Source: Octopus vulgaris
Lineage: Eukaryota
Reading direction: 5' to 3'
Length of the DNA: 64,000 nucleotides
NCBI GenBank assembly: GCA_951406725.2
Contig: OX597838.1
Span: 31,124,001-31,188,000 of the forward strand
Shown here: piece after piece, positions 38,560-38,629 of the stretch
Numbering within the stretch: position 1 is the stretch's first letter
Layout of the letters: each line of letters starts with the position of its first letter
The notes under the pieces: generated by a model
What the model saw: only the letters and a program-made list of their open reading frames with translations
What the model was told of the DNA's origin: nothing
Database searches by the model: none
Program-made: the position numbers and the translations under genes

Positions 38560-38629
38560 CAGCCTCTAATCTTCAGTCAGGAACCGGATCATCCTAGCAA
38601 ATTAATCCTGATATCGCTCCGATCCGGCC
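38560..38629 (-). ncRNA. Second copy of permuted hammerhead family 1 (GAAA segment deleted)
   Basis: ggccggatc-gg-agcga-TA-tcagga-ttaat-[cagccgaaa missing]-ttgct-aggat-gatccggt-tcctga-CTGAAGA-ttaga-ggctg; host repeat 38505-38721 is homologous to 20235-20478. Confidence 0.65.

Follow-up and report, generated by a model that had tools for sequence, protein, structure and literature searches.

A candidate rewired hammerhead ribozyme in a high-copy, Penelope-like repeat of Octopus vulgaris

Two decayed copies of a dispersed repeat

The window analysed here, a stretch of 64,000 nucleotides of the Octopus vulgaris genome, holds two related segments in which the parts of a hammerhead core appear in a non-canonical order, raising the question of whether the repeat to which they belong encodes a self-cleaving RNA. 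The original prediction had regarded the segment at 38560-38629 as a probably dead copy that, combined with a first copy at 20.3 kb, rebuilds a complete permuted ribozyme. Copy 1 (20092-20487, plus strand; 20.1-20.5 kb) belongs to the main A/T subfamily and is 5′-truncated, and about 240 nt can be aligned between it and copy 2 (38491-38723, minus strand), a 3′ end of the repeat from the G/C subfamily that carries two internal deletions and a (TA)n end. Copy 2 is cut off by a SINE-like repeat adjoining its 5′ end at 38725. This abundant two-part repeat with a tRNA-like head occupies 38725-39127 on the plus strand and has relatives at 7391, 24270, 25078, 26654, 57794, and other positions; no tRNA was detected in the window by ARAGORN.

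Read 5′ to 3′ on the minus strand, copy 2 begins with the putative stem II 5′ strand GGCUG (38629-38633, G10.1 first), which lies upstream of stem III and is assigned from subfamily covariation. It is followed by the 5′ strand of a helix extending stem III, together with the GA of a K-turn-like motif (38618-38628), the stem III 5′ strand and cleavage triplet AUA (38612-38617, with the predicted cut 3′ of 38612), the stem I 5′ strand UCAGGA (38606-38611), and a deletion junction (38600-38602) at which 9-10 nt comprising the stem II 3′ strand and GAAA are gone. The stem III 3′ strand, a 3-nt bulge, the second K-turn-like GA, and the 3′ strand of the extending helix (38583-38600) then lead to the stem I 3′ strand UCCUGA (38577-38582) and the core CUGAAGA (C3 to A9; 38570-38576), recognized by its sequence and by core conservation. 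The equivalent parts of copy 1, on the plus strand, are the stem II 5′ strand at 20323-20327, the predicted cut after 20344, stem I at 20345-20350 with 20383-20388, the stem II 3′ strand at 20356-20360, GAAA at 20361-20364, and the core at 20389-20395.

The predicted differences between the copies are all present. Stem I is TCAAGA/TCTTGA in copy 1 and TCAGGA (38611-38606)/TCCTGA (38582-38577) in copy 2, an A-U to G-C change at the pair G38608-C38580 in the minus-strand reading, and the cleavage triplet is AUC in the former and AUA in the latter. Copy 2 has a paired stem III, which in copy 1 is disrupted by private changes at two positions, 20367 and 20368, where G and C stand nearly throughout the contigs of four sequencing runs. 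Nearly all relatives have TTGCG or TTGCT after GAAA, indicating that the break in copy 1 is private decay; its K-turn G is privately mutated as well. With regard to the deletion in copy 2, CAGCCGAAA is absent as stated, whereas the exact length of 9 nt is less likely: a downstream mark of copy 2 is found in 14 of 15 G/C copies having an extra T after GAAA and in none of 24 without it, so that a loss of 10 nt between two AAT repeats is favoured. A second deletion, of 18 nt, follows GGCT. Having neither GAAA nor the stem II 3′ strand, copy 2 is dead, as had been supposed, and judging from its sequence cannot itself work as a ribozyme; it is a dead witness of one compensatory step only. The two copies are not needed to rebuild the ribozyme, since 133 of 329 aligned copies, in a sample enriched by the searches that fetched them, retain a complete core together with each of the 15 stem pairs scored.

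The repeat family is large. The core pattern CCGAAA-N20-28-GACTGANGA has 12,930 matches, compared to 81 for a reversed-pattern control. Across copies the 3′ end is fixed at (TA)n and the 5′ end is variable, and a frequent layout is one unit of about 830-900 nt with a short copy upstream of it, in some cases extended into arrays; at one locus (L061, G000:C6:85535000-85544999), at least six head-to-tail units lie ~830 nt apart in a retrozyme-like manner. Partial tandem repeats, 5′ truncation, and a microsatellite target are all present, an anatomy known for Penelope-like elements (PMC8557442), and by this anatomy the repeat is a non-autonomous Penelope-like element. The copies in the window can thus be read from their sequence as the decayed 3′ portions of a repeat that is high in copy number, inserts at (TA)n, and is 5′-truncated and partly tandem. 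No autonomous coding partner was found beside any fetched copy; the Penelope-type and LINE fragments that occur there are unrelated or unlinked, and no open reading frame with GIY-YIG and reverse transcriptase domains was found upstream of the fetched copies when the frames were read by eye. Penelope-type reverse transcriptase fragments of up to 410 aa lie near family copies at three loci (L008, L274, and L351); at L351 the fragment ends 41 nt before a same-strand family copy, to which it may or may not be linked. Several older subfamilies were recovered by searches seeded with diverged copies.

Conservation of the core and covariation of the helices

The two stem I sites had been expected to covary by subfamily, and the genome-wide count proposed as a check agrees with this expectation. 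Exact-pattern counts in the animal's own 2.8-Gb genome, with C/C and T/C left out and copy 2 falling outside owing to its deletion, gave 1,996 A/T and 36 G/C site pairs, the latter against about 1.0 expected if the sites were independent; independent variation of the two sites is therefore not seen. The mixed forms, small classes counted by eye, comprise A with C, G, or A (11, 6, and 6), G, T, or C with T (10, 20, and 5), and a single C/A, and are no more frequent than other private mismatches. The 20 T/T copies do not form one lineage, as mixed backgrounds are found among the 17 listed. All 38 G/C copies among the 329 aligned fall within one clade of 40 (support 0.96), so the change from A/T to G/C was a single event; H17 is A in 31 of the 38, another change linked to this clade. 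Therefore, the stem I pair of the two window copies is not the best evidence for the pairing, as was originally claimed, because it reflects one event and older subfamilies give more covariation. The pairing itself is real, being supported by repeated covariation across these subfamilies, in which stem I reads TCAAG/CTTGA, TCAGG/CCTGA, TCGAG/CTCGA, TCAGA/TCTGA, and TCGGA/TCCGA.

The reading of the motif as a hammerhead core in non-canonical order also held, with the core residues kept and three helices covarying. C3, U4, G5, A6, G8, A9, G12 to A15.1, and U16.1 are present in 309-327 of the 329 aligned copies, counts partly inflated by loci picked via the core pattern, and the core is kept in the majority line of every subfamily. 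N7 is free (A 205, T 70, G 48, and C 6), and H17 is G in only 3 of the 329. Stem III shows two-sided changes at four of its five pairs across subfamilies. The fold was scored on 41 rows (39 distinct) hand-picked from the 329, which are related and favour shared haplotypes; here 89.8% of 920 cells are paired, and 14 of 24 model pairs change on both sides, four each in stem I, stem III, and upstream stem II. Model covariation is 0.481, compared to 0.215 in shuffled rows (none of 500 reaches the model value) and at most 0.121 in slid controls, and the count of pairs with two-sided changes was matched by 109 of the 500 shuffles. On a tree of the 329 copies, stems III, I, and upstream II show 4, 4, and 2 compensatory events and 7, 11, and 11 breaks, respectively. 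In a blind scan of 10,295 five-pair helices, 29 reached at least 90% pairing, and in this group stem III, stem I, and upstream stem II had the most events; the ranking of single pairs by tree count is noisy. In a run of 292 copies, five of the six column pairs having two events and 95% pairing fall in the model.

Departures from the fold were observed in some lineages. An A·C mismatch in stem I spread with one lineage to five loci, two of which are one duplicated segment, and the stem I 3′ strand of this lineage accounts for 4 of 100 among the core-pattern matches listed; another lineage has an extra U in stem III. The spread of such lineages indicates that the pairing is not strict. Nested folding was no better than for shuffled sequences (z from −0.8 to +0.9), which is expected for pseudoknots. 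In the window, the best 150 of 438 Rfam matches were all microsatellite hits, and the sole match of an intact copy was a chance one to a snoRNA; Rfam also missed a look-alike of canonical order in the window, so that its blank is uninformative on the family. Two further readings, one as type I (with GAAU following the core or UH following GAAA) and one on the opposite strand, were dropped by eye, having no stem I partner or no GAAA.

A K-turn consists of a 3-nt bulge followed by tandem G·A and A·G pairs between two helices. In the family, stem III is continued by a second helix across a 3-nt bulge and tandem GA in a K-turn-like pattern; in the 41 rows both A residues are invariant and one G is kept at 90% or more, as a matter of sequence pattern only, and the extending helix is 80.7% paired. 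Candidates for the extra helix by which type-SGC hammerheads connect the free sides of stems I and II are two outer helices, CATTC/GAATG and AGCTT/AGGCT, which are 93-100% paired with no compensatory change, their 5′ sites lying about 90 and 53 nt 5′ of GAAA and their 3′ sites 45-52 nt 3′ of it. Their placement would allow them to seal the junction between A9 and G10.1.

Predicted cleavage and the 5′ ends of the copies

We consider it fairly probable that the window holds a decayed repeat whose intact members carry a rewired, pseudoknotted four-strand hammerhead, likely cutting its own transcript after AUC or AUA. Support comes from the sequence, the copy number, the covariation of stems I, III, and upstream II, the fixed core, and a pile-up of 5′ ends. 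In this model, the scaffold would be formed by stem III, the K-turn-like bend, and the second helix, which bring the last strand to stem I, and G10.1 would be supplied from the 5′ end, unlinked to A9. A Penelope-like reverse transcriptase acting in trans, likely of Naiad type, would start copying the cut RNA at the 3′ end and run off at the cut. In tandem units of about 830-900 nt, two cuts may release RNA of unit length, in the manner of retrozymes. We give active self-cleavage by an RNA wired in this way somewhat better than an even chance.

The 5′ ends of the copies were examined in this regard. Of 82 core-pattern copies, 39 have a 5′ boundary behind the site or within ~60 nt upstream. Once four internal deletions were set aside, the first stretch on the 3′ side of the predicted cut (0-13 nt) contained 24 starts, compared to 3 in the adjacent 14 nt on its 5′ side and 5 in the 42 nt beyond those (p 5e-5); this set is blind to ends further 3′ of the site. 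Among 53 incidental copies, 9 ends lie in the peak and none in the 14-nt interval on its 3′ side, the two successive intervals 5′ of the cut, of 14 and 42 nt, have 3 each, and 5 more ends lie further 3′; the peak departs from uniformity (p 8e-4), and the two-sided step alone is not significant (p 0.15). Distinct copies joined to TA (29, by eye) split 27 versus 2 across the predicted cut; 18 of them overlap the core-pattern region, and the other 11 split 10 versus 1. The boundary class called inversion was unreliable owing to matches between TA repeats and was counted together with foreign flanks. In the largest of the four sequencing runs, which consist of contigs only, summed depth rises ~1.7-fold across the predicted cut, a result set aside as confounded by likeness filters.

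An alternative to the rewired ribozyme is that the fold derives from a hammerhead and was selected as a protein-binding or reverse-transcriptase recognition structure, a K-turn RNP, with cutting slow, protein-dependent, or absent, and with 5′ ends arising where a polymerase stops or a protein cuts. This possibility is taken seriously and still judged unlikely. Catalysis is beyond what covariation can show, lineages with mismatches have spread, and the K-turn-like residues are invariant. Moreover, Penelope-type hammerheads cut poorly in vitro (PMC4209133), and the hammerhead of a Poseidon element needed protein for cleavage, could be dispensed with for in vitro insertion, and showed no RNA ends at its site (PMC11167929). 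However, every catalytic residue and the UH rule have been retained despite drift at N7 and in the stems, and the step in 5′ ends is located at the predicted bond. A polymerase running 3′ to 5′ would already have stripped the 3′ strands of stems I and III before reaching the site. The sharp edge is better explained by a physical RNA end than by (TA)n microhomology, since AT-rich stretches further 5′ with the same microhomology are nearly empty, holding 5 ends in 42 nt versus 24 in 14 nt at the peak. Under the ribozyme reading, the pile-up at the predicted cut would be in vivo evidence that cleaved RNA serves as the insertion template, an open question for such elements.

Stem II wiring and relation to known hammerheads and Naiads

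The segment at 38560-38629 implied a stem II formed with GGCT after the core; this part of the original prediction was not borne out, as the covarying partner lies upstream at 38629-38633, at or beyond the edge of that segment. The five bases before GAAA are CAGCC, CGGCC, TGCCC, TGTCC, or AGGCC, depending on the subfamily, and are tracked in the same order by an upstream segment, 5′ of all other parts, that reads GGCTG, GGCCG, GGGCA, GGACA, or GGCCT. Upstream stem II is 91.3% paired with a covariation of 0.605, and its core-proximal pair is formed in 34 of 39 rows; in one subfamily of six rows, a one-column offset of stem II makes the first pair count as broken. An ordinary type-SGC hammerhead, with stem II formed through GGCU five bases past CUGAnGA, could be proposed from the AGCC/GGCU pairs of two young subfamilies and from a downstream stem II that is 67.3% paired with a covariation of 0.295, above all 500 shuffles. 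This reading is nevertheless improbable. The core-proximal pair is present in 17 of the 39 rows, the tree gives 0 compensatory events and 18 breaks, the bases directly after A9 are paired in 1-18% of haplotypes, and a 5-nt insertion at this place lies outside the known alignments reported in PMC10085705. Hammerheads have A9 covalently joined to stem II with at most one or two inserted bases (PMC10085705), which is not so in this family. That no RNA structure was selected, and that subfamily changes and CpG decay imitate pairing, is largely refuted and hardly credible: the relatedness of the subfamilies, the single origin of the G/C change, and the ability of CpG decay in CCGG to imitate compensation in the extending helix speak for it, but repeated two-sided changes occur in three crossing helices, several of them off CpG, slid controls collapse, unrelated Naiad sequences keep the same pairings, and descriptor matches number 2 in the window versus 0 in 20 window shuffles.

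With its stem II partner upstream, the rewired hammerhead would have a backbone open between A9 and G10.1, and its strand order would be stem II 5′ strand, [stem III, UH, stem I], [stem II, GAAA, stem III], and [stem I, CUGAnGA]. In hammerheads, CUGAnGA has been held to need direct joining to stem II (PMC10085705), and Eckert et al. assumed in 2023 that block C is uninterruptible and listed six permutations (PMC10085705). The octopus form is none of these six, although it would work like SGC or CSG. It shares with type-SGC, represented by HRIMA-1 and its variants, the order of site, GAAA, and CUGAnGA, the full core, the crossing stems, and a short linker between the stem I and stem II strands (PMC10085705). 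The block order S, G, C is thus present in the family, whereas an intact block C of stem I strand, CUGAnGA, and stem II strand is absent. The cyclic strand order is that of type-CSG, reported from two metagenome sequences, which unlike the octopus form keeps block C whole (PMC10085705); the latter could be obtained from CSG by moving the stem I-CUGAnGA piece to the 3′ end. The circular order C-G-S of canonical types I, II, and III does not occur, GAAA preceding CUGAnGA by about 25-30 nt in the 12,930 core-pattern matches. Penelope-like type I hammerheads and animal non-LTR retrozymes likewise carry a hammerhead in a terminal repeat or tandem element, but theirs are of type I (C-G-S), often minimal and dimeric (PMC4209133; bioRxiv 10.64898/2026.07.22.740005); of the features of a non-LTR retrozyme, the octopus family has the tandem units and lacks the type I hammerhead. 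In the retrozyme preprint, the search was confined to type I models and octopus is not mentioned (bioRxiv 10.64898/2026.07.22.740005). No description of this strand wiring was found in the open-licence literature; the supplements of PMC10085705 and bioRxiv 10.64898/2026.07.22.740005, which lie outside that scope, could bear on novelty. The intact members probably carry a hammerhead whose connectivity is undescribed in the literature searched.

Naiads, according to Craig et al. in 2021, have no canonical hammerhead, and eight of them, including Naiad_Ovul, were marked HHR_half_core (PMC8557442). They resemble the octopus family in their (TA)n targets, partial tandems, and 5′ truncation (PMC8557442), and differ from it in that the octopus family is non-coding with units of about 830-900 nt. 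The supplement of that paper gave no match to the family motif sequence (3 motifs, 0 hits). The ends of Naiad consensus records (PMC8557442) were compared by eye. Naiad_Obim and Naiad_Ovul have the same wiring as the octopus family: an upstream GACACC pairs with GGTGTC before GAAA, stem III is ATGG/CCAT, followed by UA, stem I is CTGCCC/GGGCAG, a K-turn pattern is present, and the closing CUGAUGA has no stem II partner behind it. The ends of Naiad-3_Nbra, Naiad_Hpol, and Naiad_Smim (two nematodes and one spider; supplement S5) can be read as CSG, that of Naiad_Esco has an S-G-C reading in which stem II is not clear, and three further ends show no motif in the displayed part. The octopus family may well depend on Naiad, sharing an apparent RNA wiring in a different sequence, and the rewired hammerhead is likely an overlooked ribozyme of a retroelement group thought to have none. 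We lean slightly towards the fuller proposal that it is an active hammerhead of a seventh connectivity, with a core open between A9 and G10.1, four strands, and a K-turn scaffold, and that together with type CSG it represents the missing ribozymes of Naiads, cutting RNA before reverse transcription. If so, the assumption of uninterruptible hammerhead blocks would be broken, non-circularly permuted hammerheads would move from anonymous environmental RNA to animal genomes at very high copy number, and it would be accounted for why Naiads seemed to lack the ribozyme of other Penelope-like elements.

Other hammerhead-like motifs were observed in the window. A second, unrelated S-G-C motif with a paired stem I lies at 35300-35390 on the minus strand, with its core at 35312; the strand preceding GAAA can pair perfectly with a segment 15 nt past the core and almost perfectly with one upstream. 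At 21312 (plus strand) and 52738 (minus strand), GAAA precedes CUGAnGA, and each motif directly follows a microsatellite that stops a few bases short of GAAA, a truncation resembling the pattern of the main family. Three look-alikes of canonical order, CUGAUGA...CGAAA, on the minus strand at 44278, 2819, and 48778, the first of which was the one missed by Rfam, are probably type I hammerheads of other Penelope-like families. A near-perfect inverted repeat of 356 bp (95.5%) is located at 3008-3374, close to the motif at 2819.
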